Assembly: GCA_905178155.1 (NCBI GenBank) | Contig: CAJINV010000019.1 | Coordinates: 626,475 to 690,474 of the forward strand | Source of the DNA: Amoebophrya sp. A120 | Lineage: Eukaryota > Protista > Dinoflagellata | Direction: 5' to 3' | Length of the DNA stretch: 64,000 bases | Shown here: positions 9,018-31,643 of the stretch, piece after piece | How positions within the stretch are numbered: position 1 is the stretch's first letter | Layout of the letters: every line of letters begins with the position of its first letter | Notes under the pieces: generated by a model | The model's input: the letters and a program-made list of their open reading frames with translations, nothing else | The model's database searches: none | What the model was told of the DNA's origin: nothing | Program-made: the position numbers and the translations under genes

Positions 9018-12000
9018 TCACCTCACCGCACTGGCCGCTGCCGCCATGGCTTCTTGTTCCCGGGCGGCTTTCGCGGCTAGATTTCGCTTGTGCAAGTCGG
9101 ATATGCAATGCAAAAGCATCGTACTAGTATAAATTGCATTACAAATTTTGGCAAGAAGGAAAGTGGAATCTGTATTGCTGTTTTGCCTTAGGAAAAACAT
9201 TTGTCATGCATATTTGCAATTAGTACGAGCACGATACTTTTGCACAGGATATCCGACTCATTCTCGTGCCGAATCAACGCGGCCGCGTGGGGGAATTTTC
9301 GCTGACACAAATAGCAGATGTACTCCCTCTCTTCCTCCGGTTCGGGGACATCCTCCGCATCGGACAGTTCCATGTCCTCCTCATCAGATTTATCAACTGC
9401 AAAAGTGTCTGAATCTGGAAGAGTGCCAGACTTGTCATGCAGGTTTTCCATGACCCATGAGGTCTGGCATATAGGACATAGCATGACAGAATCTGTGAGA
9501 GTTCTATCATGCCTATCCTGCATGAGAAACTGCCTCTCGATTAGGTCAAAAGTGGACAGCTTTTGGTAATCACGCAACACAGATTTGTACATGATTCAGA
9601 TTTAGCATGACAAGTCTGCATTCTTCCAGTCCCAGATGACACTTTTGCATTTGATAAGATTCGGACGCAAACACCGCGGGTTGCTTCTTCGTATTCAACA
9701 TCGTCCCAAGGTTCTTATCAACTACAAATATGTCTGGGTCTGGAAGGATACAAGGTGAAGGTTTGTCATGCTTGTCTGGCATGACTGAAGAGTTTGTGAT
9801 GCGTGTGCAAGAAGAGACCTCTTTGCTTGTCATTCCAAAACGCAGTTTTTCATGCGGAAAGCGCAACACTAAGAAGCGCAGATATTTCTCATGCTTGGCT
9901 GTGCATTTCAGAGCATTCACCATTCCCAACCCAGCATTACAAGTTTCCAGACCACCCAGACATTTTTGCATTTGATAGTTCTGCTGTGGCTGCTGACCCT
10001 GCGGCGCAAGAAGATGTTGCTGCTGTTGTACCTGCTGCTGCCGTAATTGCTGGTGGTGCGATGTCGCGTTGTAGATATCCTGAAAGTATCAAATGTAAAA
10101 ATGTCTGGGTCTGGAAGATTCTGACACTTGTCATGCACGTTTTGCATGAGCCCTGATGTCTGTGATGCATGCCCTAGCATCACAGATTTTTTGAGAGCTT
10201 CTTGATGCCTATTCCGCATGACAAATGCCCTCTCCGCGTAGCAAGAATTACATTCCCTTATGGTACTCATGCAATACAGATTTTTTTGGAATCCAAATCC
10301 AGCATCACAAGTTGCATTCTTCCAGACCCAGACACTTTTACATTTGATAGAAAGCTGACCGGGCCTCGAGAATCAGTAGGCGCCGGTTGGGGCGCGAACT
10401 GCGGCGACGGCTTCCCTAACGGAATCGAGTTCGAACCTGTGGAAAAGCTTGGCGGCGGACGCTGTTGCTGCTGCTGCTGCTGCGAGGGATTCATGTTCTG
10501 TTGCTGGGTCATTTGGTTGTTATACAGCATTGAACTACTATGCTGTTGCGGTTGGGAATTTGGCGACGGAAGCCTTTGCTGGTTCATCCGGTCATTCAAC
10601 TGACTCTGCTCCATCGACGCCGCGGCCATCGCGTTGCGCATACTGGAGGCGGTTGCGCTGAGAGGGGGCGGGGCAGTCGTGCTAGGGTCGTCAACAGCGC
10701 TTGTTGATGGCATAGTACTTGATGTTCCTGTCACATTTACTGGGAATGAAGCATCTTGCTGTAGCTGCGGGTTGTTGTACGTCGCATCTGTGCTATTCGG
10801 AGGTGACCCACCAGGCACGCCAGGTGGTGCACCAGTTTGCCCACTCTCCACCGTAGAGGCTGCAGCTCCAAGCTGCGGACTTTGCACCGGGTTCGGCTGG
10901 ATCACCAACCCAAATTCGTGCTTCCAGCTCGCCGGGAGATGCTTCAAGGGGAGTTTGGCACAATCCTCCTTGATCTTTCCCTTGGAGTCCACCTGGATGA
11001 GAACTCGCGATTCCTTCTCGTACTGAAAATAAATCGCGTTAGCGTCGAAGAAAAAACCCCGCTCGGAGTCGAAATACCTGTATAAAAGATTTTTTTTGCT
11101 TTGTATAATCTCCGAATTCTTGATCTTGTTTTGGAGCGGAATAAAGAGATTAGCCAATTATGCTGTGAAATGAATCGCTATAGTGATCGAAACAAACACA
11201 AAGACAAACAGGAAGAGTTCCTGCAGAAGATGAAATAGTACATTGTAAGCCCCTCGTTATCCACAGTGGTCCATATTGCCGTTTGCGTTTCATCGGGATT
11301 CCAAACGTTCATCAGTTTCCTCCCACGTGGTAGAGACTTATCCATCGGCTTACTATCGCCGGAAGAAGTAGATCCTGTTGCGCCGCCGCTGTTTCCACCT
11401 CCAGGCGGGACTAGAACCCCGGCTGAGGAAGCTGTGGCACCAGCGTTGGCTGAAGCTGCAGCTCCCCCGCCGCCGTTGATCCGACTGTTGCTCACGGCAG
11501 CCGTCGTTGTCGCCTTTGCACCATTCGCGCCCTCGAACTTCTTCAGATAAGAGGCCCACATGCTGCTATTGGTGTTCTCTTCCTTCTCTAGTATCGCAGA
11601 AACTGCTGCACTCGTAGAATTATTCCCTCCTGCGCTCGATGAAGATAAAAACGGGTTGGAGGGTCCACTTTTGTCGTCATTTTTCTCCTGCATCAATTTC
11701 AGGAGCTCCGGTTCCTGTGCGAGCAAGGAAATGTGTTTCTTCGGCAATTTTGTAGCCTGTAAAACCGCGGGTAAATTCGCCTGGTCTCTTTCAAACTGCA
11801 CCTGCGCGGAGGCTTTCGCAAAGTGCGGGTCGACAAAAGTGTCGTTGATTTTTGACTGTTTCTTATCCTGAGTAAAAACGTACCCACGCCAGAGTTGTAA
11901 TGCAGATTTGCAAAGACAGGAAGACTTGTCATGCGCATCCCCATGAGAGCCATTTCCAATCGCGTTTTGGAATTTGTGACGCTGTGAACAGGATGAGCAG

Positions 12001-13735: not shown

Positions 13736-14580
13736 GACGTCTAGTAAAGCTCATACAGAGGTACAGGTAGCATAACAACTAGGTAAAGTCATATGTCAAG
13801 ATAAAGTACTTAAATACTAAGTTGTAGTTCAGGAGTTGGAGTTCTACCTCGAGCTCTTTCCACTTCAAATAGACATAGTACTTAGTCATAGAACAAAAAG
13901 AGCTGTGGAGGGGTCAATTTGAGCAAGTAGTTATTTAAGTTGCGATGAGGCAAAAGACACAACGAAACGCGGAGAGAAGTTAGGCAGCGTTGTATAGGAT
14001 TTTACTGTCAGAAATGCCAGTCTTACAGAACCAAATAAACGGAATTTCTTCGATGAGGACGCATTTCCTTCGAGAACGGAAAAACAAAAACCCAATGGGA
14101 CATCGGGATTTCCTCTAAAAAATGATCTTCGAAAGAACGACACCAACACCATGAGGGTATGGATGTCAAATCTTATTTTGATCGCCGTTGAAAGTCAGTG
14201 CCTTTAATCTGCGCCAAATCACATGTCTGAACTAAAAATATTTATCTTGTCGAAGTAGTGCCTGGCCTAGGTTGTGAATAGAACAGCTACTAACATCGGT
14301 GCAAAGCTGCGCGCAAAAAGTACTTCTTTGCGGGGGACAATCTACTATCCGAATCATTTTTTTTTTCCCCGATCCTTCTTGGTGCTGCAAAATAAAAGAA
14401 AAAAGCAAGAACAAACACACGGTCGATCAAGAACAGATGGATCAGCAAAAGCGACACGCAGGTGAACAAAAACAGTTTGCGTCTTGACAGGAAAATCGCT
14501 TCGCTGCCGTTCTTTTGCAAACGAGCCACGCGGAAGATGACACGACAATACGATTTGTACAGTTTCAAAAGGTCGTTCTT

Positions 14581-17500
14581 TCACAGAAACATTTGACAAT
14601 CCTGCTTCTGATGCAGATGGTGCAGACGCACTCCTTTGTGCGCACTTTTGGTCCTCTTCATGTTCTGTAGGGAAGACCCATGATGTTGCGGCTTCTCGCG
14701 ACGAAAAACATCTGTCGTTGCAGCGTGCCTGCTACCCTTTTCACAACTTCTACCGAGCACAAACATTTTGCGCATTCCCGCCAGCATTTCCATTCCGAGC
14801 AGGAAAACAATCCCAACACGATCTTCCACCACCCGGGTTGCTTTCTTCACTTGGTTCAGGGAAAAGATCCTGTCTGGGGACTGGTTCAACTCCGGGTCGG
14901 TAAACATCACCTTCACACAGCCCTCCGTGTTGCAATCGTGCTGATCATCCGACGTCGTCAGCGGCCGCGAGTTCAAATCGTTTTCTAACTTCTCCAACTC
15001 CGCCGGACTTAAATTCTCGGTGGAAACGACCTGCACCGAGGTTTCGTCCGTGTCGTTCTCGTCATCTTGCTCCGCGATGGGCTTCCACAGCTTGGTGACA
15101 AACCCCTGCGTATCAAACGCAAAAGTGTCTGGGTCTGGAAGAGTGCCAGACTAGTCATGCAGGTTTTCCATGACCCATGAGGTCTGCGTCTGGTATGTAA
15201 GACATAGCATGACAGATTCTGTGAGAGTTCTATCATGCCTATCCTGCATGGGAAACCGCCTCCCGATTGGCTCAAAAGTGGACAGCCTTTCGTAATCACG
15301 CATCATCATCATCATGTAGTGGACACCCGCTCCCAGCGCCACAGGTCAAGGATCCCCTCCCCGGGGGGTGGGCGAGGAAGCACTTTCGGCGACCTCCACA
15401 TACAAAAGCCGAGCGCTACCACGGCAAGTCGCCCCAATAGAAGTACCAACCAGTCGGGAGCTACCCACCACACCTGATCAGTACAGCCCGGCCAGCTAGC
15501 TGAGCGCGACAGCCCAACATACAGAACGATCCAGGACCCGACCCATTTTACGCCATAAGTTTTTGTTCTCACGGAAGAGACGACGTACCCCTTTGGGCTA
15601 AGGGGCGAGACTCTCCCTTAAGCCGCAACCCCACCCAGACAGGGGAGGCTGGACCATTTGTGCCTTACCTGCGGCACGGACGAAAAAGGCAAGTGCCGCG
15701 GACCGGAGATGTCAAACCATTGGCCAGTTGTTTGTCACTGCTGACTGGCAACCCACCTGGGGCACAGCGACAACTTAAAGGTTTAGTTTGTGCGTGGAAG
15801 TCTTAGTGCGACCCTTGACTTATTCTGCAACAGAAGCAAAGGGCGGGAGGGGGGACGGGGGTCGTAAGCCGGAGTCGCGACGGAACTTACCTATTAAGGG
15901 TAGCCGGCAATCCCCTTTACCTCTCAAGCCCCCCTCGACCGTAGCTGATTCCGTATTGTGCCACCGATTAGCTTCGGTTGCATAACACCCAAGGGCTGCG
16001 GAGCACTAATCCCGCCGAACACCGTGCAAGCCTACTCGAAACTACACGCCACCTCCTGCACGAGCAAGGAGAATGGCGGGAACTACCCTTTTACTCTTGT
16101 AGTACACTGCTGTTGCCGTTTTTCTTCGTTCTCACTTATTTTCTAGCACAAGTTTGACACTTTCGTTTTCTGTGCTTTCTGTGCGAATGTTCTAATCAGT
16201 CTGAATGTGGCAAAGTCTCAATGTGGCAAAATCTCAGTGGTTCAAATCGAAACTATTTAGCTGCTAACTTGGCTGCAGAGTGGCAGAATCGTCTACCGTC
16301 ACTCTACATCCTCCTTCTTCCTGCCTGTGACCCGGCGCAACATCTCGCCCCAACTCCTGGGTGAGAGTTGTTCACACTCCAGTGGGGCCTCCTGCTTTTG
16401 TCCAGTGCCCCTCCCGGCCTCGCCGTCGTTCGACGGTAGCATTAAGTGGACTACATCCAGCAACCTCTGGAATTTCCCCACCTGGACATCCGACGCAAAC
16501 GTACGTCGCGGCAGTTCCGCCCCCGTGCACGCTTGACGCGCTTTGTCGCTTCGTTCTTGCTTACCCTCTGAGACCCCTGGCCACACAGGCGACGAAGCCC
16601 GCCCCGCACTCAACGAAGCAGCCTCACTTCCCCCCTCGCTGCGCTTTGCCTCTCTGGTAGCTCCGTTCGGGAGGCTACTGCCGAGGACGCCACTGCTAGA
16701 CACTGTCCGTGCCTTCTCGGTGCCCCTGCTTTCTTGGCTAGTCGCGTCCTCCGTACTCGGCTGCGCCACTTTTCGCAGCTTCTTCTCCGGCGACCCCTTC
16801 ACTAGCTTTTCTGGCTGCCAACTCTTTGGGGAACAGCCAGCAGAGTGCGAGGGGCTAACTCCCTGCTCAGTAAGACACATCTCGTCTTCCGCTAAAGCGG
16901 TAGATCGATCAACCCCCTCACCCCAGCTCAACGCGTTTGAGCCCTCACGCGCTACCTTGGGAAGCCTTTTTGCAAACCTTTTCCGCTCGCTCATTGTGAG
17001 CTGGTCATACCTCTTGTGTGATATGGATGAGGAAGACGAAGAAGCTGACGCTGAAGAACCGACTGGAAGGCGAAGCTCTTCAACTGTCGCCCGACTAGAC
17101 ATCGCCGGCTTTGGGGGACTCACTTCCCCCTGTGCTGGCTTGCTCGCACCCTTCGCAAGAGTACGACACAAACTCAGACAGTCAGCCTCCATGTGAAACT
17201 TACTGAGCGGGTCTTTTGCCACGTCGCTTTTGTGTTTTTCCGTTCCGGACTGCTGCTCCGTGGCACTTCCTGCGTCTACTTTCTCTGCGGGCACGTCGCC
17301 TGCAGCCGTGCCCTTCGCTTCCTTCTGGTCCCCCCTCTCTTGCACCGAGGGGGCCTGTTCCTCCTCTTTTCCTCCTTCTGGTTTTACCTCTTTCCCTTGC
17401 TCTATCCCTAAGCATTCGTCAAGATACAGCGTTCGTCTCGTGCGCGACATCTTCGGCCAGTCCCTGACCGGGGGAAACTTGTACGCTTCTTCACCGAACT

Positions 17501-20500
17501 CGTAGACCGGCCATGTTGTGTAGCAGTTGTCACGCTGCGCTACGTTGACTATCTCGAGAGGGACCGCGTGCACTGGGACTCCCGAGTCTAAGTCCCTGAA
17601 ATTTTCGCCGTGCTTAGGCAAAACTTCTTTACGGACTTCATAGCCCAAGGCCTGCGCGCCTTCTAATGCTTCGACTAGGCTCAGCACTATTCCGTTGCCC
17701 TGCCTGAGCGGGCCACGTGTGTTCGACTGCAACCGCTTGTAGTCCGAAAGCTCCACTCCTGCTCTCTGAACCCCATGACAATACTGCATGACACCCCGCA
17801 GCAAGGCCATTGCATTGCTCACATATGCCAAGAAGCGTCTCTCTTGTCTCCTCACTTCGACCTTTAAGTGCTCCAGTTTCGTTCTGTACTGCGCAACAAT
17901 CCTGCCTGTGCTCCTCTCTACGCAGACCGTTGCAGTCAGATCTGTCGAGGCTCTAATTTCGTAAACCGGTAGGCCTGGCGACATCTTGTCACGTCGTAGA
18001 GTGCGGTCCTGCACGAACCCTGCCACCCTGAGGTCGCTCCTGTGGGAGATGCGGGTCGCCGCGCCGTCAACTAGAGCCTGAACAAGCGCTATGTCCGCTT
18101 TAGCCTGTTCCTTCAGGTCCTCCTTATCGCTGTACTTGATGCCAGTCTCGCCCGCCCCCAGAACTCTAACGGGGTAGACCGCCTTAGGCAATAGGAAGTC
18201 CATATCCGTCAGGATGCTAGACTGGCAGGCACTCCGGAGGAGCTTGATGCTCATAACAAATGGGTCGATTAACGCCAAACAATTCTCGGAGAAAATTACT
18301 CGGTAGAAGCACTGTGGCTGCAGCTGTGCTCTAGCAGTCAGCTCGACCCACGCCCTTTTGGAGAAACCCAGTGTCTCCGCCACTGCAGTGGCCATATCCA
18401 TCAGGAGGTCAGCCCAGTCCGATGGCTGCAAGATCACCTGCATCAATGGAAGGAGATACAACAGCCCCGAAAGATAGAACATAACCACCAACCACCTGAG
18501 TTCCTCCCCGGCCATCTCTTTCTGACTCGCCATGACTTTGGCAGCTAAGTGCTGGCCAAGGCCAATCGCGCTAGTAATCTGACCCTTTGTCGCCGCCCTC
18601 TGCTCGTCTATCCCTTGCAGCGTTATTATTGCGCCGAGGATCCGAGTGGCTCTCTTCCGCAACAGTTGGACGCCTAGTGGCGTGAAAGCATGCAACAACG
18701 CGAAAGCCTCTACCTCCTGATCTGAGCACAGGAGCTCGCTCTTCGCAGGTGACAAAAACTGTCCTTCGCTGACGTACATCCTTTCATAGATTTTCGAAAC
18801 CTGTTGCAGAATCCAGTGCACAGCTTGTCTATCCTGCTTCCTAAAACGCAGGGAGATTGTGCCGTCATCGATAAATTGAACGGCTGTTGCTGCGCGACGC
18901 TTCGCCGCTTTGTGCGGATTCTGTAACTTGCCGTCCTGATACTCGAATCGCACACGTCCTTTGCGCTTATCGTCCCTCGTCTGTGTCGCAACCCTTCTAA
19001 AACCTGTTGACTGGCCCCCATTCGTCCCTACATCAAAAAAGAGCTCGCCCACCTCTGTACGGACATCGTACTTGCGGAATGAAGTGTCCAAATCTTCACC
19101 AGACGCGTAGCGCTTCTCGACTGCGTTGCGCATCGTATGCGCTAACTTTCTAAGTTCCGCGTCGGGGACCACTCGCCCCTCTTCATCAAAGCACCCACTA
19201 AGAAACTTTGCCACTTGATGCACTGCCGGCATGAAGAGGAGACTACCGCACATCATGGCGTCTACACTGCCTTGGATCATTTCATGGTGACCGCTAATCT
19301 CTCCGAAAACTTCGCCGTTCCTCAAATACAGCTTTTTCGAGTACGTGGCTATCATTATCAACTTGATGATCACCGGATGTATGCGAGCGTCACGCAAAAC
19401 CCTTGCCGCACTGCATACCGAGAGACTATTGAAAAAATTTGCGGCGTCGACTCCTATTAGGCAAGTGAGCCACTCTGCTTCTTCCCCCGAGGAGGGCTGT
19501 TCTTGAGCACTAGCATCCCTGTCAGCAGCAGCTGGGCTCCCTGGCGCGGCTAGAGGCTTAGCCTCATGCTTCGCTTTGCTTTGTGAACCCTTCTCGATGT
19601 CCAGGCCAAAAGTGCTCTGCTCGTGCAAAACGAGTGGACTCGCACTAGCTGCCTTCGTAGCCTTTTTTGTGCCCTTACTCCCTTTTGCCCTCTTCTTGCC
19701 CCCAAGTTTGCTGGCCTTACTCCGGGGGGCCCCCTCTCTCTTCTTTTGCAATTTCAAAAATTTCTTCGGCTCAGCATCTAGCTTCCTGTTCCATCCATCC
19801 TGCAGCTCGTCTGAGTATATAGTGCCCAGAATCTCCAGCGCCGTCACAACGCTGGAAGCGCCCGGCTTACCCCCAGCACCTGCTGGTGTATAGTTGTCGC
19901 CTAAGTCAGCAACTCTGGCGCTAATGTATACGAGGTAGGAGAGCAAGAGTCTGTAGCACGGCGTGCCTTTTATGACTGTCCTCAGCTTCCTAATGTCGTT
20001 CCCCAACCCTTTGACCAGAAGCTCTACCTGTAGGGTAGTCAGGAGAGGATGGATCACCTGGTCCTTATCCTCCAGCCACGGTTCGAACTTCATCTTCTTG
20101 ACTTTCCTCAGGAAAGACGTATAGCCCCGGGCTAAGTTGCAGAGTTGCTTCATACCTAAGCCTTGGAATGCTTTGACTCGCATCCCGTCTGCGCCCCCTG
20201 CTTCGCCGTTGACTCTCTTCAGATGAGCCTTCAAGTCTTTTCCTGTAATTTCGATGTCAGGAACAAGGTCGGCCGCTTGAGTCAATTCACCCAAAGCTTT
20301 GGCAAATTCAGCGCGGTCAAAGGTGTGCCTCTTGCCGGCTTCTCGCCTAATGTGCTCGTTTTTCGACAAGTGAAATTCAGCTATCTTCACTGCGCATTCT
20401 TCTGCGCCATAGACATAGACCGGGTCAGCTTCCGAGCCTATATTCAGGCAAGACTGCTCACCTGCAGCCGCGCCTCGTTGTGCCCCACAGACCTGTAGTT

Positions 20501-23500
20501 TTGCTGCTTTCGCCCTTTTGTACTGATTGTCCATTTGGTCTGGGTCACAATCGTGCTCAAAAGACTTTACCCATCTCTCTGCAGTCTCCTTAGCTTCCCG
20601 CGCTAACTGCTGCAGATCGTCCTCGGTGTTTGCCACATCCTTGCCGAGAACAATTCCGCCTTTCCTGACCTTGCCGAAGCCTTTTCGTCCTTTCATCCCC
20701 GGCAAGCCCTTCGAGCCTTTCCCTTTCGAAGTGCACTTGCCGCCCTTGCCAGTGCCTTTTTTTCTATGCGCAAACCTTTCTGGCTTTGCGCGCTCGAAGA
20801 GCTTCTGCAAGTTCTTCGGCATTTCCGCCGGAATCGGGGCAATGAGTTTCTCATCCACTAGAACCTCTTGCATCCACGTCTCCACCTGGTGAATCCCTTC
20901 TTTTTCAAGATCTGGCATCGCTTTTCCCTCAAAAGCCTTCTGCAAAGCCTCGGCCTTGTGCGTGTTCCGAGGCCAGGCAGTGATCATAGGAAAGGGGGCC
21001 GCTTTCTCGAAGTTGTTCCTTCCTTTATAGATCTTGACCCGATTTTCTGTCGACAGGCCCTGCGGGATCCTTTCTGCATAGGTCGCGTTAAATTTCAGAC
21101 CAGATTCTGTCTGGACTCCTGCCTTTTCCCTAGCCATCTGCTGCAGGACCTCCTCAAACTTCCGCAGTGCCGCCCAATGTGGGCGCCACACCACATCTAA
21201 AAGCAGCGCTAGGTGGTCTGTCTCTTCCTCAAGTGGGTGCTCGTGCTTTTCCAGCATTTCGCAACTCCCCTCAGGCGTATTAGCAACCTTCATTCTTTGC
21301 AGCTTCGGCTGTTCAAAGATGCTCGCGTGGTTCGCTCCCACCGCTACAAAGTCAATCGCCCGGCGCGAGGCGCCTTTGTACATGATTCAGATTTTTACAT
21401 GATTCAGATTTAGCATGACCAGTTGCATCCTTCCAGACCCCGACATATTTGCAATGCATACTGTGCCCGGGGCTCCCCGGGGAGAAGCCGCACCTCGACG
21501 GCGCTGCCCTCGGCGATAGTTGGGCTATCAACTGCAACTACATCTGGGTCTGGAAGAGTGCACGACTTGTCATGCATATTTCTCATGGCCCATGGTGCCT
21601 GTAATGCATGACCTAGCACCAAAGACTTTCAGAGGGCTTTGCGATGCCTCTACCGCATGAGAAATGCCCTGTCTGCGTAGCACAAAGCGGACCCCCCTCT
21701 TGCTGGTCATGCAATACAAATTTTTTTAGAATCCAAAAACAACATGACAACTTCCAGACCCCGACATATTTGCATTTGATATGGGTCCACCGTCCGCAAA
21801 ACGTGCACCGCGTGTTTCGGTAGGCAAACCGGCTGGTATGTCTCCGCGATGGTTTTTCCGGTCAGCGCGTTTGTTGTTCCGTCTGTCGCATAATCCCGCA
21901 TGGTTTGAAAACTGTCCAGCCGGAGACACACGGTGTCCTTAGCTTTTTTGCTTTCAAACTCTTCTTCCGGGGTGAGATCGCTGCGGTCGATGGGCTGCGA
22001 GACCACGGCTTCGGGCACGCATTTCTGCGAACTCTTTTCGCACAGGTACCAGCTGTGCTGCTTGGGCACGAACCACAATTCGGTTTTTTCTTCGCCGCTC
22101 GCGCCCCGGCGGACGGAGGTTTCTCCTTGCTCTTGTTCTGGGGTGTCTTGCGAATTTGTTCCCCTGAATCCGAAAAATCGACGGCTCTTTTGCACGTTCT
22201 TCGGGCCCTTGTTTTTCACGCCCCAATCAGCCAGAAATTCCTGGCGAATTACGGTTGCCGCGTCGGAGTCAGTGTTTTCGTCGACGATGCAGTGCTCGTA
22301 TCAAGTGCAAAAGTATCGCACTCGTATTGCAATCATGCATTGCAAATCTTTTTCCTAAGGTAAATTCGCATTACAAATTCCACTTCTCATGCTGAGAAAA
22401 TTTGTAATGCATTTATACGAATACGATACGTTTGCACTGCGCAGCTCGTCCCGAAGATGGCACAGGTTGTCTTTCCGGAAAAACATGGTGGTTGCCGGTC
22501 GTGGCGTATCAAGTGTAAAAATGTCTGGGTCTGGAAGAACGCATGTTTGTCATGCTTGTCTGGCATGACTCTTAAATCTGTCATGCAACTTACCCAAGAG
22601 CTCCATTTTTCTGTGATGCAGAAACGCAGGTTGTCATGCAGAATAGGCAACACATAGAAGCTCAGAAACTTGTGATGCTGAGCCAGCATTTCTGGCCTCA
22701 TCATGAGACGCCACCCAGCATCACAAGTTTCCAGACATCCAGGGATTTTTACATTTGATATGGCGTGGGAGTTGTACTACTACCGCTGCTATCAAATGTA
22801 AAAATGTCTGGGTCTGGAAGAATGCAACTTGTAATGCGTACTTCAGAACACAGAAAAGTCTCTCATGCATACGTAGCAAAAGCTCCCACTTTTTGTCTGC
22901 AAAATAGGGGACTTGTCATGCGGATTCGGCATTGCGGAAGGCTCTCGAAACCTGTGATGCTAGAGCTTCCATGCCAGACCTTCTGCGTCATGCAAAAACA
23001 GCATGACTCTTCCAGACCCAGACACTTTTGCAATCCATAGCTGCCTGCTCCAGAAGATCCAGTACTTCTACTTGTCCCGTCGCCTAAACTGACCGCCACG
23101 AACTCCGGAGGTGCGTGGCTTCGGGCCGCAAAAATCCCCGGCTCCCGCTGGGGCGGGTCTACGTCGTCGCACGTCCTCTCATCCAGCGCCTTCCGGTTCA
23201 CGTAGGGCATCTCCAAAACCATCGGCTTGGTTTTGTTCTTCAGCGCATCCCGCCAGTCCTTCGAAGGAAAATCCTTCCGCTTTGTCACGCGGATGTGCTT
23301 CTCGGTTTCGAGCGGGTTGAAATCCTTCGGACAGTCTATTTCGTATCAAATGCAAATATGTCTGGGCCTGGAAGAGTCGAAGGTTTGTCATGCAGCTCCT
23401 CAAAGCCCCACGAGCTCTCTAATGCAGAGCCTAGCATGACAGATTTTCTGCGGTCATTATCGTGCCTATCCTGCATGAGAAACTCCTTCCTACCCTAACC

Positions 23501-26500
23501 AAAACTGGCAACTTTTGGCAGTCACGCAACACAGATTTTTGTGTGACCCGCAGCATGCATCACAAATTTGAGCTTTTCCAGACCCAGACACATTTGCCAT
23601 GCATATTTCGTTGGATTTTCCGTTGGTCCGGAAACCGAAGTTTTCGAATTTTTTGTACGCTTTCGTGTAGTATCAACTGCGAATATGTCTGGGTCTGCAA
23701 AAATTGGAATCTGTATTGCTCGTCTTGCACTCCTGTAAAATCTGTATTGCGTGACCGACAAAAGCGCGAATGCTTTGTTATGCAAAAACGCAGTTTCTAA
23801 TGGGCATTTACACATCATGAGGAAGCGTCCTGAAAATTTGTCATGCTTGGCTGCTCTCAGAAGTATGCTCCATCATTGCCACATAGCATCACAAGTTTCC
23901 AGACCCAGACATATTTGCAATCCATATGTAGGCGTCGAACGCGTCAACCATCCAGGAGGGGAGGTCCCCGGCTTTTGCTAATTTTTTCATCTCGTGGTTT
24001 TCCGCAATGCAGCGGGACTTCTTGTAGAAAAGGGATAACGCCGACCGAAAATCATGGAACGTGACATCTTCGATTTCAGGGAGGTCCTGCTCAGAGGTGT
24101 AGCTGTCGCCGCTTTTCGTACCTGTATCTTCGTCTTCATCTTCATCTTCTTTGGAAGTTGTACTACTATCCTCATTTGCGTTTGTTCGCTCGTCCTTGGA
24201 ATTAATATCGTTATCGCCGGGGGTGCTCTGCGTGTTCTCGTCCGGTTTATTGCTGTCGCCGCTTTTGTTCGTAGCTGTATCGTCTTCGTCATCTTTTTCT
24301 TCTTGTTCTTTGGTTGTTGTACTATCCTCGTTTACGTTTTTTCCCTCGTCCTTGGAATTAATATCGTTATCGCCGGGGGTGCTCTGCGTGTTCTCGTCCG
24401 GTTTATTGCTGTCGCCGCTTTTGTTCGTAGCTGTATCGTCTTCGTCATCTTTTTCTTCTTGTTCTTTGGTTGTTGTACTATCCTCGTTTACGTTTTTTCC
24501 CTCGTCCTTGGAATTAATATCGTTATCGCCGGGGGTGCTCTGCGTGTTCTCGTCCGGTTTATTGCTGTCGCCGCTTTTGTTCGTAGCTGTATCGTCTTCG
24601 TCATCTTTTTCTTCTTGTTCTTTGGTTGTTGTACTATCCTCGTTTACGTTTTTTCCCTCGTCCTTGGAATTAATATCGTTATCGCCGGGGGTGCTCTGCG
24701 TGTTCTCGTCCGGTTTATTGCTGTCGCCGCTTTTGTTCGTAGCTGTATCGTCTTCGTCATCTTTTTCTTCTTGTTCTTTGGTTGTTGTACTATCCTCGTT
24801 TACGTTTTTTCCCTCGTCCTCGGAAGCCTTATCGCCGGTGCTCTTCACCAAGTCTTCCTTCTCACCAGCAGGAGCGTCTGTGCCGTCCTTTTCGCCACTA
24901 GAAGCATTTGCGTTCTTTGTGCTGTTATTGCCATCATTGTTCTCGCCTTGTTTGGGTAGTTCTGCTTGCTCGGTGGTGGACTTTTTCGCTTTTGCCTTGT
25001 AATTATCCACTTTTTCCGCAGCGTTCGCCTTGCTCTTCCCCCCAAGCGTTCCCGTTGTAAAAAGTTGGTGCACAGCTCCTGCTGCTTTCCTGCCTTCAAT
25101 CTTCTTACCATTTTCCACCACCTCCTTCACCCACAATCTCCTCTCCGGCGCAATCTCGAACTTGTCTTCTAGCGGCTTTTCATTACTACCACTCTTGTTT
25201 CCACCTCCAGTCGCAAAAACGGAGTTCGCGCCCGAATACCCGGGCTTTAGTTTCGGTTTCCACGCTTGCAGGAAGAAAAAAAGCGCCGACTCTTCTTCCT
25301 CGTTCAAGTTCCTGCTGTTTCCGTCCTCAATTTTATCCAACTCCGGATCTTTGTCGGGCTCTTTTGGTCCTGGCGTGTCGTCGTTGTTGATTTTCGATTT
25401 CTGCGTCAAGCCGCCGACGGTGTCGTACTTTATCAAGTCTTCCGGTTTGTCTATCCTGTGTGCAAAAAACTGAATCCCAAACACGATTTTTTTGTTGTGG
25501 TATGAACAAGAAAACGCAGAAGGCTCCGCGTCTACGTTTAGCAAACGTAGACGCAACTGTTTACCTCTTGCGGTGCATGCAAAGCCTATCTGTGCATGAC
25601 CTGTCTGATGTGGGCGCTTGCATACCCAGTGCTTTGTAGTTTTACCAGACAACCAGAGTTCAAAAGTTGACTATCGGAGTGTGAGGGACGTTTTAGCGCA
25701 GGATAGCTTCATTATCAGGCTTTGTTTTCTCGTCCTCTTCGTCCTCGGGAACTTCAGCATCGCCTGTGGATGTTGTTGACCCGTCAGTCGACTTACTCCC
25801 GGATTCGTCAGTTTTTTTTGCTTCGTCTACTGTACTTGCGTCTTTACTCGCATCTATTTGCGCACCCGCAGCTGTACTATCGGAAGATTCGGAAGTAGGT
25901 TTATTATCCTTGTTCTCCGCTGCCGCATCCTTCGTACCACTGTGTCGTATCCTTAGTGCCGCATCCTTCTCGACCATGTCGTACTTTATCAAGTCTTCCG
26001 GTTTGTGTTTGTCTATCCTGTGCAAAAAACGAAATCTCAAACACGACATGTTTAGTGTGAGTGCTGTGAACAAAAACCGCAAAACGCTTTTACCAATATT
26101 ATTTTTTTTGGTCCAAGCAAAGCCTGTCCTGTATGCAGAACCCGTCTAAAAATACGAGCGCTAGCATATTTATGATTACCCTTGGGTTATACATTCTAAC
26201 TATCGCAGCAGGTTTCGGGACGTCTTTGCGCAGGATAGCTTCATTCTCGGGTTTTGTTTCCTCTTCGTTCTCGTCCTCGGGAGCGTCATCATCGCCTGTG
26301 GATGTTGTTGACTCGTCCTCGGGAGCAGCTGTGGATGTTGTTGACTCAGTCGACTTACTCCCGGATTCGTCAGTTTTTTTTGCTTCGTCTACTGTACTTG
26401 CGTCTTTACTCGCATCTATTTGCGCACCCGCAGCTGTACTATCGGAAGATTCGGAAGTAGGTTTATTATCCTTGTTCTCCGCTGCCGCATCCTTCGTACC

Positions 26501-28637
26501 ACTGTGTCGTATCCTTAGTGCCGCATCCTTCTCGACCATGTCGTACTTTATCAAGTCTTCCGGTTTGTGTTTGTCTATCCTGTGCAAAAAACGAAATCTC
26601 AAACACGACATGTTTAGTGTGAGTGCTGTGAACAAAAACCGCAAAACGCTTTTACCAATATTATTTTTTTTGGTCCAAGCAAAGCCTGTCCTGTATGCAG
26701 AACCCGTCTAAAAATACGAGCGCTAGCATATTTATGATTACCCTTGGGTTATACATTCTAACTATCGCAGCAGGTTTCGGGATGTCTTTGCGCAGGATAG
26801 CTTCACTCTCGGGTTTTGTTTCCTCTTCGTTCTCGTCCTCGGGAGCGTCATCATCGCCTGTGGATGTTGTTGACTCGTCCTCGGGAGCAGCTGTGGATGT
26901 TGTTGACTCAGTCGACTTACTCCCGGATTCGTCAGTTTTTTTATTTGCTTCGTCGGTGGTTGCGTCTTTAATCGCATCTTTTTGCGAACCCGCAGCTGTA
27001 CTATCGGAAGTAGGTTTGTTATCCTTGTCCTCCGCTGCCGCATCCTTCGTGTATGACCTGCTCAAACGTTACAATCTCAAACGGTACAATAGAGTCTGAG
27101 ATTTGTCTTGCATGATCAACATGACAGACTCGGACAGCGTTCCACTTTTTGCAATACAAATTTCGCCAGATTGTAGTGCGGATTGGGACTCCAGAACTTG
27201 TCATGCGCAATCCTGTGGGAGTAGGGTAGATCATGCACTTCTTGCAACACAAATTCCAGATTCTATTGTAACGTTTGAGATTGTAACACCTGAGCAGGTT
27301 ATATCGTACCGCTCCACTTTTTCCAGTCTCGCACGATCCACCTGGGTATGGAAGCGTCAGGTTTGAAATCGTCAAAGTTGAAATAATTTGTAATGCATAA
27401 AATGCATGACCCAAGGCGCGTGTGTTGCAGAGCAGGCAAGTGAGGCCGACTGTGAGCCTGTTTGGGGTTACAGCTCGAGCTGCTAAAGTAGCATGAGAAA
27501 ATCACTCTTCTTTGCCTAAACAGCATGACAAACTGGATTTAGGGACCGCCGAAATTTGTCATGCGCCACTTGGAAACTGGGTTCCAACTGGCATCCATTT
27601 TATGCATGCCAAATTATTTCAACTTTGTCGATTTCAACTCTGACACATCCATACTGGGCGCCACCTCCGTATCACTGGTAACCCCGACTTATCCGTTGCA
27701 AAAGCATTAGCGCGCTCGTGCTCATTGCAATCATGCATGACACATGTGGTTTAGCTTTAGGTTTTCCACATGAAAAATCCGCATCACAAAGTCCAGTTCC
27801 TTTTGAAAGAATTTTCATACTTCCGCAATTCCACGAGTTCGGACAATCAGAAACTTTTGCAATCCCTACGTCTTTATATTTCACTTTCAGACACTTATCA
27901 GTCCCACCCCCACAGCTTCCCGTCGGCTCCATGACTTTTGCCCGCTTCCACTGCCCGGGGTTCTTCGCACTGTTTACCCCCTCCTGCGTCCGAAACGCCC
28001 AGACCTCCTCCCCGGGAAGGTTGTTGTACCCGAACTTGCCAAAGTGGTTCTTCTGCAGAAATCGCTTCATCGTGTTCCCCGCCTGTAAGCGCCGGATGTC
28101 GCAGCCGCCGGTTTTTTTCGCAATGAACTGCTGACTCCGATCGGATTTTTCCACGTTCAGCAAGGAAAGGTTACCCGAAGCGGCTGCATTCTTCGTCTGC
28201 AGAAGTTCCGATGAAGCGTTGTTCTTTTTGCTGTTGTTCGACAATGTGGTCCCGACCTGCCTGTCAACCAAGCTCCCAACGACTGCATTTGATGTTCCCG
28301 CATTCATCTTGCTAATTCCCTGCGCTTCGTGCGCTTCCAGCATTCGGGTTTGCAGCGCCCGAAAGACGGGGGAATCGCGGCCGAGCTGACTCGCAAACAC
28401 TTCGGCGAGCTTGGGAGGCTGGTTGGAATTAGAAGTTGTACCATCGCCCGGTTGGTTATTATTGGCGAGTATGTTGGCAGCCTGTCCGGAACTTCTCTGG
28501 CCGTTAGGCGCATACATCTCGTGCAAGATTTCATAGGAGGCAAAGGAAGATGTGGGCATGACGTCGCTTTTGCCGGGCTGGATGGACAAGGCGGAAAAGG
28601 TGGTAGCTTCTTTTTTTTTACTGTTTTTACTCGACAA
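14581..28637 (-). CDS. Paralogue A of an unknown Cys-containing family (possible Tudor/Agenet-like beta modules, acidic tandem repeats); host of the nested LINE
   Basis: Exon motifs match the genes at 38371 and 42588: CDIRRLQAGNT / NPGQWKRAKV / KCLKVKYKD vs CNLRRRAANST / NPGMWKRGTI / ECLGIRWRD; RSHAPPEF vs RNHAPPAF; EGSAVEV..GFVTKLW vs VGTQVEV..GKVTRLL. Exons PGEPRAQ (ending 21461) and GFVTKLW (starting near 15105) join in frame across 15111-21460. Both gene ends uncertain. Confidence 0.6.
15303..21374 (-). mobile_element. 5'-truncated non-LTR retrotransposon (LINE, APE + RT type) inserted inside a family-A introner
   Basis: Splits an introner into 15111-15302 and 21375-21460. (ATG)5 3' tail at 15301-15315 (plus strand CATCATCATCATCAT), ~1-kb 3' UTR, RT ORF. 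Confidence 0.88.
16299..21383 (-). CDS. LINE ORF2-like protein: C-terminal remnant of APE endonuclease plus reverse transcriptase (FIDD)
   Basis: 1694 aa, no stops. APE-end motifs RAIDFV and TDHLAL. RT motifs AGGADG, KLRTV..PCYRLL, GVDAANFFNSL, MIQGS, QFIDDG, LSPAKS and RILG occur in the canonical order, with long inserts. Confidence 0.85.
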   Translation of the reverse strand: MYKGASRRAIDFVAVGANHASIFEQPKLQRMKVANTPEGSCEMLEKHEHPLEEETDHLALLLDVVWRPHWAALRKFEEVLQQMAREKAGVQTESGLKFNATYAERIPQGLSTENRVKIYKGRNNFEKAAPFPMITAWPRNTHKAEALQKAFEGKAMPDLEKEGIHQVETWMQEVLVDEKLIAPIPAEMPKNLQKLFERAKPERFAHRKKGTGKGGKCTSKGKGSKGLPGMKGRKGFGKVRKGGIVLGKDVANTEDDLQQLAREAKETAERWVKSFEHDCDPDQMDNQYKRAKAAKLQVCGAQRGAAAGEQSCLNIGSEADPVYVYGAEECAVKIAEFHLSKNEHIRREAGKRHTFDRAEFAKALGELTQAADLVPDIEITGKDLKAHLKRVNGEAGGADGMRVKAFQGLGMKQLCNLARGYTSFLRKVKKMKFEPWLEDKDQVIHPLLTTLQVELLVKGLGNDIRKLRTVIKGTPCYRLLLSYLVYISARVADLGDNYTPAGAGGKPGASSVVTALEILGTIYSDELQDGWNRKLDAEPKKFLKLQKKREGAPRSKASKLGGKKRAKGSKGTKKATKAASASPLVLHEQSTFGLDIEKGSQSKAKHEAKPLAAPGSPAAADRDASAQEQPSSGEEAEWLTCLIGVDAANFFNSLSVCSAARVLRDARIHPVIIKLIMIATYSKKLYLRNGEVFGEISGHHEMIQGSVDAMMCGSLLFMPAVHQVAKFLSGCFDEEGRVVPDAELRKLAHTMRNAVEKRYASGEDLDTSFRKYDVRTEVGELFFDVGTNGGQSTGFRRVATQTRDDKRKGRVRFEYQDGKLQNPHKAAKRRAATAVQFIDDGTISLRFRKQDRQAVHWILQQVSKIYERMYVSEGQFLSPAKSELLCSDQEVEAFALLHAFTPLGVQLLRKRATRILGAIITLQGIDEQRAATKGQITSAIGLGQHLAAKVMASQKEMAGEELRWLVVMFYLSGLLYLLPLMQVILQPSDWADLLMDMATAVAETLGFSKRAWVELTARAQLQPQCFYRVIFSENCLALIDPFVMSIKLLRSACQSSILTDMDFLLPKAVYPVRVLGAGETGIKYSDKEDLKEQAKADIALVQALVDGAATRISHRSDLRVAGFVQDRTLRRDKMSPGLPVYEIRASTDLTATVCVERSTGRIVAQYRTKLEHLKVEVRRQERRFLAYVSNAMALLRGVMQYCHGVQRAGVELSDYKRLQSNTRGPLRQGNGIVLSLVEALEGAQALGYEVRKEVLPKHGENFRDLDSGVPVHAVPLEIVNVAQRDNCYTTWPVYEFGEEAYKFPPVRDWPKMSRTRRTLYLDECLGIEQGKEVKPEGGKEEEQAPSVQERGDQKEAKGTAAGDVPAEKVDAGSATEQQSGTEKHKSDVAKDPLSKFHMEADCLSLCRTLAKGASKPAQGEVSPPKPAMSSRATVEELRLPVGSSASASSSSSSISHKRYDQLTMSERKRFAKRLPKVAREGSNALSWGEGVDRSTALAEDEMCLTEQGVSPSHSAGCSPKSWQPEKLVKGSPEKKLRKVAQPSTEDATSQESRGTEKARTVSSSGVLGSSLPNGATREAKRSEGGSEAASLSAGRASSPVWPGVSEGKQERSDKARQACTGAELPRRTFASDVQVGKFQRLLDVVHLMLPSNDGEAGRGTGQKQEAPLECEQLSPRSWGEMLRRVTGRKKEDVE
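21526..21781. mobile_element. Introner family A
   Basis: TIRs; TSD TGGGC/TGGGT. Confidence 0.9.
22299..22443. mobile_element. Introner family B (right end GCA instead of ATA)
   Basis: TIRs; TSD GCTCG/GCTCG. Confidence 0.88.
22507..22760. mobile_element. Introner family A
   Basis: TIRs; TSD TGGCG/TGGCG. Confidence 0.92.
22790..23039. mobile_element. Introner family A (reverse orientation of 3260-3511)
   Basis: TIRs; TSD GCTGC/GCTGC. Confidence 0.92.
23344..23605. mobile_element. Introner family A
   Basis: TIRs; TSD TTTCG/TTTCG. Confidence 0.92.
23671..23926. mobile_element. Introner family A
   Basis: TIRs; TSD TGTAG/TGTAG. Confidence 0.92.
24189..24820 (-). repeat. Coding tandem repeat, 156 bp (52 aa) x ~4 apparently identical copies
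   Basis: GTCCTTGGAATTAATATCG recurs at 24192, 24348, 24504 and 24660. Encodes KDEGKNVNEDSTTTKEQEEKDDEDDTATNKSGDSNKPDENTQSTPGDNDINS. Confidence 0.95.
25452..25705. mobile_element. Old introner, family D
   Basis: TATCCTGTG...CGCAGGATA; flanks TTGTC/GCTTC (diverged); removing element + 5 bp restores the frame. Confidence 0.75.
26014..26237. mobile_element. Old introner, family D (duplicated with its exon)
   Basis: TATCCTGTGCAAA...TTTGCGCAGGATA; flanks TTGTC/GCTTC. Confidence 0.75.
26576..26799. mobile_element. Old introner, family D (near-identical to 26014-26237)
   Basis: Same ends and flanks, 562 bp offset. Confidence 0.75.
27052..27303. mobile_element. Introner family E
   Basis: TATGACCTGCTCA...TGAGCAGGTTATA with ~50-bp imperfect TIR; TSD TCGTG/TCGTA. 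Confidence 0.9.
27347..27653. mobile_element. Introner family F
   Basis: TATGGAAGCGTCAG...CTGACACATCCATA; TSD CTGGG/CTGGG. Confidence 0.9.
27690..27868. mobile_element. Degenerate introner, family B-like
   Basis: TATCCGTTGCAAAAG...CTTTTGCAATCCCTA; TSD CGACT/CGTCT. Confidence 0.8.
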
Positions 28638-29331: not shown

Positions 29332-31643
29332 TCAGTAGCAGTAAGTCCTTGTTCTGTGAAAGGGGAGTAATTTCCCTTCCCCATCCAGCTGCACGGCTTT
29401 TCGCCAGAGGTAGTAGTCGAGGTTCGCCATGTTCAATCCGTTCTCGAAATCTTCCTTCTCGTATCGTGAGAAAAAACTGCTTCACTTTGATGATTTTGCA
29501 AGATCTGCATCACAAGTTTGTTACGCATGACACACAAAATTTGCCATGCGCGCTTCCCAAGCGAAAACATGCTTAAAAATCCAATGTCTTGCAGGTGTAG
29601 CAAGACAAATCGCTCTGTGCTCCATTCTATGCATCACAAGTTCACAGTGAAACAAATTTTTCTTGCGATATCTCGTGCATTTTCCGCAGCAGCTCCAGCA
29701 GATCCGCACAGGCGACGATTTATCAAATGCAAAAAGTGTCTGGGTCTGGAAGATTTCTAGATTTGTCATGCATATTTTCCATGAGTCATGATGTCTGTAA
29801 CACATGCCGTAGCATCACAAATTTCTAGAGGGCTTTGCGATACCTCTACCGCATGAGAAATGCCCTATCCGTGTAGCACAAATTGCACCCCTCTCGCTGG
29901 TCATGCAATACAAATTTTTTTAGATTCCAAAAACAGCATGACAAGTTGCAATCTTCCAGACCCAGACATTTTTACATTTGATACGATTGTGCCCGCTCGA
30001 AGGGAGACCTCGAAATCGGAGTTTTCTGGGATGTATCAAGTGCAAATATGTCTGGGTCTGGAAGATTCTGAGACTTGTGATGCACGTTTTGCATGAGCCA
30101 TGATGTCTGTGATGCATGTCCTAGCATGGCAGATGTTTTGAGGGCATCTTGATGCCTATTCCGCATGACAAATGCCCTTTCCGCGTAGCACAAATCGCAT
30201 CCCCTTTGCTGGACATGCAATACAGATTTTTTTGGAATCCAAATGCAGCATCACAAATTGCATTCTTCCACACCCAGACATTTTTGCATTTGATAGGATG
30301 AACTCGCAGTTTTCGATTATGCTTAATAACGGCGTGCTGTGTTTTGTCACCTTTACTTGCGAAGAAGTTGTAGAGGTCTTTTCGCTTGGTAGTTGTACTT
30401 GTTCTTCGCAGCTGCCGCTCATAGTACCGTCTTCGGTTGTTCCGGTTCCCACGCTAGTTTTGCTAGAAATATTAAAGTCGAACACTTTTTCGGTGAGGAA
30501 CAACTGCGGCAAGCGGTAATCGGAAAACACCGTCAACGATTGGTTTAAGTCAGAAAACACCACCAACTTATCTGCGTGCAACATCGAGGCCGCGAGCTGC
30601 GGCCGCTTCGCGAACTCGATGTTGTCCCGACGCAGGTCCCGGAAAGCAGGGACGTGTTTGCAAAGAAGGTAGACAAATTTTCCCACGGTCGGCTTCTCTC
30701 CCAAAATCTCCAAAAGCTTCTCCAGAGACACCCTGTTCGAATAACAGTCCCCGAGCGACCGCAAGCACTGCATTCTCCAGGGCAGGAGAGGGAGGGAACC
30801 AGCATTGGCTGCCGGGCGGAACACATTTTCGAGGTGAGGGACTGTGATTTGTTGTAGAAAATGTCCATTCCGCCAGATAGTCGAGTCCCTGACCTCCTTC
30901 TCGAGACGCTTCATGGCCTCGACAATGGCGAACGCCTCGTCGTCCTTCCCGAAAAACTTTTGTTCGCCCCGTTCGTCGTCTTCACCCTCATCGCTGATAA
31001 ACCAGCGCGGCTTGCCGTTGTCGGGAAAAAAGGAAAAGTTAATGACATTGTAGGCCAGGATTCGCGCGATGTCGTTCAAGCGGGTTTCGAATTTATCGTA
31101 GTCCGGCATGACAACATCCTCGTCCCGTTCTGGCACAACAATTATCTTCTCCGCACCAGCAGGGCTGCTTTTCGCGCAACTCACGTCGCACAAATCCCGG
31201 ATATCGATGGATTGCGCGAACTTTTGTAGAGCTTCTGTCGGAATGGAGAGCTTCGCACAGCTACTTTCCAAAAACTTCCGGCACTCGGGGATGATACGAG
31301 ACGGAGGGAGGAACTGCTCCGGGAGGGAGACTTCCGGTTCCGCATCGGGTTTGTTCGCGACAATCTCCTCTGTCCGGTAGTTGAACGGAGGGAAGACCAG
31401 CGGCGGAAGAGTCTCCTGACGACTCCAATCCACTTCCGGGGGTGCGGTTATGATGTTCTTCTTGCCATCCATGTTTAGCTGCTCTTGCAGAGCAGGCTGT
31501 GTTTTCAAAACAGCCTGGGTCGACGTATACACATGAGGGGACATCATCGCCTCGTGTGGTGCTCCTCGCACTACAGTCATGATCTTTTTGATTCGATTTG
31601 GTTGTTGTAGTGTGGGTTGTGCTTGTGTTTGCTCTTCATACAA
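29332..31643 (-). CDS. QNG1: Queuosine 5'-phosphate N-glycosylase/hydrolase (Q salvage protein, DUF2419)
   Basis: Motifs NVINFSFF, FAKRPQL, LTVFSDYRLPQ. After removing three introners the C-terminus reads EVSLRAGTIVAC...NMANLDYYLW...LPFHRTRTYCY*, matching DUF2419 family ends. Start uncertain. Confidence 0.85.
29462..29670. mobile_element. Introner family G
   Basis: TATCGTGAGAAAAA...TTTTTCTTGCGATA; TSD TCTCG/TCTCG. Confidence 0.92.
29721..29983. mobile_element. Introner family A
   Basis: TIRs; TSD CGATT/CGATT. Confidence 0.92.
30034..30295. mobile_element. Introner family A
   Basis: TIRs; TSD GGATG/GGATG. Confidence 0.92.

Follow-up and report, generated by a model that had tools for sequence, protein, structure and literature searches.

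What marks the ends of an intron that lacks GT-AG borders, and do those marks still hold once a retroelement has swollen the intron to more than six kilobases? The question is raised by a 64,000-nt stretch of the Amoebophrya sp. A120 genome (contig CAJINV010000019.1, positions 626,475 to 690,474; hereafter the window), where an introner, a repeated intron-forming element bounded by inverted-repeat (IR) arms, is interrupted by a long open frame. The explanation favored here, which is probably right, is that what is likely a 5'-truncated long interspersed nuclear element (LINE) of the apurinic/apyrimidinic endonuclease (APE) type is nested in this introner, and that all 6,355 nt of the enlarged intron are removed, likely through cuts fixed one nucleotide before the first arm and four nucleotides after the last (-1/+4). 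Coordinates are window positions; the host gene, the introner and its insert are all read on the minus strand, with higher numbers upstream.

At least 29 intact introners of about 250-290 nt each occur in the window and occupy 7,562 of the 57,650 nt outside the long intron. They start with TAT and end with ATA. Of the 28 arm pairs listed, which include two cross pairs spanning two elements, 23 are flanked by an exact 5-bp duplication; none of the 28 has an exact flanking duplication of 3, 4, 6, 7 or 8 bp. TAT-initial inverted arms, a short direct repeat and a repeated family place them among IR introners of the A120 type, as does removal with non-canonical ends, seen in the 6,355- and 6,676-nt joints described below.

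The introner of interest is split. Its left half, which begins with the TAT arm (21388..21460; recovered by alignment and in DNA unitigs 15903-21417 and 21432-21593), and its right half, which ends in the ATA arm (15111..15300; local matches and alignment), are separated by a 6.07-kb insert. When 21388-21460 is joined to 15111-15305, the resulting 268-nt element shares 235 of 272 columns (86.4% identity) with the introner at 9391..9656 (minus strand), the best match among 18 intact copies compared and, by local matches and alignment, the closest intact introner in the window and the reference for the empty site. A 5-bp target duplication flanks the whole, as CACAG on the 5' side (21461..21465, from the introner alignment) and as CGCAG, with one synonymous difference, on the 3' side (15106..15110). 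An earlier note on this DNA had proposed that the halves rebuild a copy of 9391-9656, which they do, and had drawn the left half out to 21375; the collinear parts are 15111-15300 and 21388-21460, and 21375-21387 is a 13-nt copy belonging to neither half. The same note's element of about 265 bp and intron of 6.35 kb become 268 nt and 6,355 nt, the latter being the whole element plus one 5-bp duplication.

Transcript contigs show the insert being removed. Exon contigs ending at 21783 and 15106 predicted two junction forms across the locus, and both were then found in a set of four presumed RNA runs (X3-X6). The first is an exact 6,355-nt joint (15107..21461, reading GT..CA if cut at -1/+4), present in two of the four runs (depth 12.5 in X3 and 17.8 in X4) and carried by the same 120-nt contig as a 261-nt joint that removes the ordinary introner upstream (21522..21782). 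Between these two introns lies a 60-nt micro-exon (21462..21521), which is included or skipped in frame. The second form, a 6,676-nt joint found in three of the four runs (depth 5.9 in X3, 8.6 in X4 and 10.8 in X5), drops this exon with the frame kept by pairing the left arm of the upstream introner with the right arm of the LINE-bearing one. Judged by contig depth, a poor measure of isoform amount, the skip form makes up roughly one third in X3 and X4; none of the three joints was found in X6. DNA unitigs run unbroken across 15106, 21461, 21521 and 21783, so the exon-joined forms, among the joints listed, are not seen as DNA alleles.

The flanking exons, at 21783..22299 upstream (exact contigs) and at 14541..15106 downstream (exact contigs in all four runs; stop codon at 14581-14583), belong to a host gene whose frame, once seven introns are removed, encodes 1092 amino acids; the LINE-bearing intron is the last of the seven. 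Excision of the element together with one 5-bp copy brings the exons back into frame, which hides the insert from the protein. The predicted in-frame join of PGEPRAQ to GFVTKLW is present in the contigs of the presumed RNA runs, and the suggestion that introner splicing tolerates 6 kb of cargo is borne out by the exact junction contigs. The same prediction held that the flanking exons resemble paralogues, and this was not confirmed: a tblastn search against the window returned no non-self match below E 0.2, and two upstream copies match the 1092-residue frame only at residues 15-84. These copies stand in tandem at 25972-26169 and 26534-26731 (minus strand; E 0.001-0.002).

Where exactly are the cuts? 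The 6,676-nt skip joint is free of ambiguity because it joins unlike flanks. Its ends read AT..CA, and the intron it defines starts 1 nt before the upstream element's TAT and ends 4 nt after the LINE-bearing element's ATA. Both inclusion joints are compatible with the same -1/+4 cuts, and the skip joint allows the ends of the long intron to be placed, by inference, within the 5-bp duplication. A GT..AG pair one base longer (6,356 nt) exists and is not among the three joints listed; canonical GT-AG splicing was rejected, as it would shift the frame into a stop codon and is not the joint found. A second in-frame skip can be inferred upstream. A 1,220-nt contig in X3 leaves just 53 nt between 23041 and 22299 and stops matching at 23041, where inclusion would match on, and its counterpart in X4 is 24 nt longer (1,244 nt). 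The inferred skip, of a 24-nt exon (22762-22785, minus strand) between two ordinary introners, fits -1/+4. The LINE was considered as the cause of skipping and rejected, since this 24-nt exon, too, is missing from the X3 contig. In a published A120 introner family, not necessarily that of the window, 6,681 of 9,716 annotated donors are reported to read GT, CT, AT or TT (PMC12130899), as expected if the cut falls one base ahead of a T.

These positions suggest that the cut sites would be set at fixed distances from the inverted-arm ends, independently of intron length and of GT-AG. The arms may pair in the precursor mRNA, and arms of one family would be interchangeable, so that an outer pair can skip a micro-exon. 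Arm duplexes are calculated at about -35 to -58 kcal/mol, versus -26 for the strongest LINE-internal window tested, and by the same calculation all introner arms cross-pair. A possible though doubtful alternative keeps the same anatomy and has proteins or a small nuclear ribonucleoprotein read each arm alone, as the motif of a donor or of an acceptor. Neither the tolerance of 6.3 kb nor the swapping of arms needs pairing, and duplex energies speak against it: they do not predict which exon is skipped, and the i1-left/i2-right arm pair is equally strong, yet its 60-nt exon is included. Against recognition of single arms stand the mutual complementarity of the arms and the stability of their duplexes; hairpins, moreover, were proposed for these introns by Farhat et al. 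(PMC7789003). Arm-to-arm pairing is retained here as an inference. Five further neighboring introner pairs (9656/9716, 9977/10087, 29983/30034, 41247/41296 and 52439/52510) enclose exons of 43-104 nt, some in frame and some not, and offer natural arm-swap tests.

Removal of the full insert has to be weighed against the nature of the data. The four transcript runs all come from one sample (S2) and were taken as RNA by guess; they differ in sample from the DNA evidence, which consists of one run, X1 (sample S1). Among the DNA contigs listed, none bridges 21417-21432 or shows the 3' junction, and the long-range assembly is not independently proved. All of this weighs against the reading favored here and leaves room for two other accounts. 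In one, the RNA source carried an empty, short introner, so that the joint says nothing about 6-kb cargo; the RNA and DNA samples do differ, and contigs drop rare alleles. This is quite improbable. The exon contigs match the window with no differences. In addition, a 162-nt contig of X3 (depth 2.1) is an exact match to 16035-16196, in the single-copy portion of the insert's 3' untranslated region (UTR). In X1, moreover, an exact 5,515-nt unitig (15903-21417) has a depth of 44.2, equal to that of the unique flanks (41.4-46.8), leaving no sizeable empty allele in that sample. This depth also argues that the open reading frame (ORF) is single-copy in X1, and because the 5' junction lies inside the exact unitig it is taken as real.

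In the other account, the LINE belongs to a different, related introner and was joined here by misassembly through the repeated arms. The short-read unitigs do break inside both arms (21417/21432 and 15138) and cannot phase the locus. Against this, the rebuilt halves are of one subfamily and meet within 0-9 nt, the flanking 5-bp duplication matches at four of five positions, and the 5' junction is spanned by the unitig just described; misassembly is highly improbable. The favored reading of one nested LINE removed with its introner stands with these reservations. None of the four presumed RNA contig sets covers the ORF, which is not taken as evidence on expression, and a raw RNA run (X9) matched only introner arms, with no match on exons, and is uninformative.

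How did the insert arrive? Beside the introner's left half stand 13 extra nt copied from adjacent introner sequence (21375..21387), which supply an in-frame ATG at 21383. From this ATG runs a stop-free frame of 1694 amino acids (16299..21383 including the stop codon, of which the part from 21374 downward derives from the element), held in an exact single-copy DNA unitig. The other five frames over the same stretch contain 36-90 stops each, and a run of 1695 codons without a stop would arise by chance with a probability of about 1e-34. A 3' UTR of 983 nt follows (15316..16298), the last ~650 nt of which are common to many short, diverged copies, and then an (ATG)5 tail (15301..15315), the final five nucleotides of which (TGATG, 15301-15305) are shared with the target; other copies diverge at 15301. 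Frame, tail and a UTR of about 1 kb had all been recognized in the earlier note. The 3' UTR folds no better than its shuffled versions (z -0.09).

Neither junction carries a target-site duplication of the insert's own, and the tail is (ATG)n in place of poly(A), both of which set the element apart from L1-like LINEs. The target is blunt or short by at most 9 nt, and the junctions can be read either as blunt, with a shared TGATG and 13 filler nucleotides, or as a short tandem repeat accompanied by the loss of at most 9 nt. Insertion may have proceeded by target-primed reverse transcription, primed through TGATG, which may represent micro-homology with the target. It would then have been finished with the 13 copied nucleotides, plausibly a template-jump filler, and with no duplication of its own. 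LINE insertion junctions of this kind are described for ZfL2-2 (PMC2666801).

The identity of the ORF was approached through its relatives. Scans of the whole protein against Pfam, PDB sequences, word-indexed homologues and NCBIfam gave no match. When 800 of the 1694 residues were used in an unindexed search of 1.84 billion proteins, nine relatives at E ≤0.001 were recovered, at only 18-28% identity. Of seven that were looked up, six carry a name and a source, five from Amoebophrya strain AT5.2 and one from A120, and one is unnamed; five of the relatives are named as Amoebophrya proteins, of five families. Three of the nine match endonuclease families PF03372 or PF14529, one of them above the Pfam cut-off, which places an APE endonuclease N-terminal to the reverse transcriptase (RT), as in LINEs; the window copy keeps a remnant. 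By alignment with full-length relatives this C-terminal APE remnant spans 21195..21374, with IDFV and TDHL motifs present and the upstream motifs missing. The window copy is judged to be truncated within the APE domain because it begins 9 residues before IDFV, where P0001, P0003, P0004 and P0008 have 265-338 residues that carry the earlier APE motifs. Since it is 5'-truncated inside this domain, the open-frame copy would not be self-sufficient, and its insertion would have depended on a source element that X1 either lacks or carries only at more than 10% divergence. In P0002, an AT5.2 relative, a V-SNARE domain stands at the start in place of most of the APE, so this model of a host gene may have taken in a LINE.

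A very divergent RT-like region with two long insertions (18600..20250) is indicated by alignment, motifs and a weak Pfam RVT_1 match. Its motifs are D-x-x-N-x-F-N (19454), QG (~19277), FIDD (~18875), K (~18746) and LG (~18638), an order that we take to be the canonical one of RTs. The DD pair is invariant in all eight aligned sequences, the upstream Asp is found in all seven that cover its site, and QG in six of seven. A profile of the family aligns the upstream Asp with the matching motif of both group II RTs compared and ranks one of these above 500 shuffles, though at E 2.1. Trimmed pieces match RVT_1 at FIDD with E 0.012-0.048 (best 15.7 bits versus a cut-off of 29.6). Counting against the assignment, significance against a curated profile or structure was never reached, the best being the Pfam E of 0.012. 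None of the nine aligned family members matches RVT_1 as a whole sequence, hhalign gives the family profile less than 1% probability with the two group II RTs, and searches of PHROGs, plasmids, metagenome and viral contigs and a two-sequence group II profile gave no significant RT match. Two single-sequence AlphaFold models were poor (predicted local distance difference test scores of 35 and 49), with only helical-bundle noise in fold searches; the second placed two strands around FIDD. The RT assignment is accordingly motif-level only, made from conserved motifs and the weak RVT_1 match. Of the earlier designation as an APE-remnant/RT LINE, the nesting and the APE-bearing relatives stand, and the RT part falls below the Pfam cut-off. 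The ORF appears to be part of a divergent LINE lineage.

Why is the frame still open? The insertion may be recent, because the frame is intact while short relatives differ from the window copy by about 2-8%. Alternatively, the frame may be kept by selection, either as a domesticated gene or as a working source of the short copies. This is the only long copy in X1 at a likeness of 90% or more, the short copies lie within that 2-8%, and the filler provides an in-frame ATG. Selection is nevertheless improbable, with most of the APE missing and contigs that join across the ORF. A host-LINE fusion protein was also considered and rejected, as the host frame stops after 16 codons into the intron. Recent insertion remains the preferred account.

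Other copies of the element are numerous and short. Summed DNA depth falls from ~5,400 at 15397 to 44 above 16506, although summed depth is not a copy number. Their match to the window breaks off at the tail (15301) on one side and at 15383, 15394, 15494 and 15954 on the other. Their varied 5' ends and common 3' end are as expected of 5'-truncated retrocopies, and a simple-repeat 3' tail common to truncated copies is a LINE trait. One of them, a diverged (~96%) copy of the terminal ~650 nt of the UTR that covers 15445-15954 and ends at 15954, is present in both DNA and presumed RNA contigs at depth 19-27 and could be either an expressed truncated copy or a partner resembling a short interspersed nuclear element. 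A published precedent invites a further account, in which a composite element with terminal inverted repeats (TIRs) and a retro-ORF moves as one unit, as TIR-flanked retro-ORF introners do in A120 family 38 (PMC12130899). Several near-identical copies of arms plus ORF would be expected of that type; here the ORF is at single-copy depth in one DNA run, and the fragments found elsewhere are anchored at the tail and have different flanks, which makes a composite barely credible.

Does this LINE favor introners? Four flanks of other short copies can be read within single contigs, one at 15301 and three at 15383, 15394 and 15494. Two of the four resemble introner right-arm sequence and may be the ends of one copy. 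Patterns drawn from these two match the window only in introners, at 1 and 2 sites where 0.00 and 0.03 are expected by chance; both patterns were picked post hoc, and copies are sampled with bias in RNA contigs. An X1 joint, 15645/21434, may be another nested copy and was kept outside the count, since the joints available for listing are those to the window alone. ATG occurs at 76.7 per kb in introners versus 28.2 per kb elsewhere in the window, and TGATG at 7.5 versus 2.6 per kb, a richness that would offer a priming route to insertion bias. Survival under selection would yield the same introner-flank pattern, and genome-wide targeting of introners as safe havens is a candidate explanation only. 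A broader synthesis can be offered only tentatively: the arms would act as a modular ruler that swaps partners, overrides GT-AG and spans at least 6.7 kb, and an undescribed, Amoebophrya-restricted lineage of (ATG)n LINEs would prefer ATG-rich introners as hiding places genome-wide.

The rest of the host gene and its surroundings hold further features. A 150-nt intron at 22300-22449 (minus strand) belongs to another repeat type; its left arm is degenerate, reading TGC in place of TAT, its duplication is CGAGC, and the loose end of a presumed RNA contig indicates its removal. The first long exon of the host gene (24039-25002) holds about four near-identical copies of an acidic repeat of ~55 residues, for which Pfam gave no match. 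Upstream, at 30156-31643 (minus strand), lies a Queuosine salvage protein domain (PF10343, E 1.9e-17).

How far was this to be expected from published work? The A120 introners described by Farhat et al. in 2021 (PMC7789003) share with those of the window TAT-initial arms, direct repeats, lengths of about 250-270 nt, non-canonical ends and many copies. Their analysis, in the text available, covered introns of 40-1000 bp and left the borders open, whereas the window intron measures 6,355 nt and the skip joint fixes the border at -1/+4. Gozashti et al. in 2025 (PMC12130899) report for A120 a TIR-flanked family with retroelement-like ORFs (family 38) and a family of 27 copies with termini ~4.5 kb apart (family 103). 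Like the window intron, these are TIR-bounded introns holding kilobases; as presented there they are multi-copy families of their own, whereas the window appears to hold one LINE later inserted in an ordinary short introner. Because such multi-kilobase introners are already tabulated for A120 in that paper, this locus is not the first sign of length tolerance. Several short TIR families there have LINE peptide matches and alignment spans of 6-14 kb, and may be unremarked cases of the same nesting.

More distant systems offer partial parallels. Zebrafish APE LINEs of the ZfL2-2 type end in short-repeat tails comparable to (ATG)5 (PMC2666801, in the portion available); the window RT differs in its long insertions and in being too diverged for Pfam RVT_1. 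In Euglena, non-conventional introns are reported to have splice sites at fixed spacers from a pairing motif, much as in the window, with an origin from miniature inverted-repeat transposable elements proposed (PMC12501133). The lineage is another, the motif is CAG-CTG and the spacers are 3 and 5-6 nt; as far as the available text goes, those spacers were tested by knock-in, with central length changed by only 5 bp (PMC12501133). A search that did not extend to subscription papers or the supplements of Farhat et al. found no publication that treats a LINE nested in an Amoebophrya introner or intron borders defined by skips; the word "nested" is absent from the main texts of PMC7789003 and PMC12130899. 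Nesting of elements is ordinary, and long TIR introns are implied in print. New here are the precise excision of 6.3-6.7 kb, the swapping of arms, by which the cut sites are fixed, and the apparently divergent LINE lineage.

More than 60% of Amoebophrya introns lack GT-AG ends, and how they are removed is open. At this locus, even an intron made 24-fold longer is excised precisely. The locus also suggests a way around the 5-bp duplications that mask true cut sites, as skip junctions between neighboring introners, with their unlike flanks, reveal them; collected genome-wide, such junctions would test pairing against motif recognition using existing RNA-seq. A retroelement family missed by standard RT profiles would mean that the non-long-terminal-repeat content of these genomes is under-counted.

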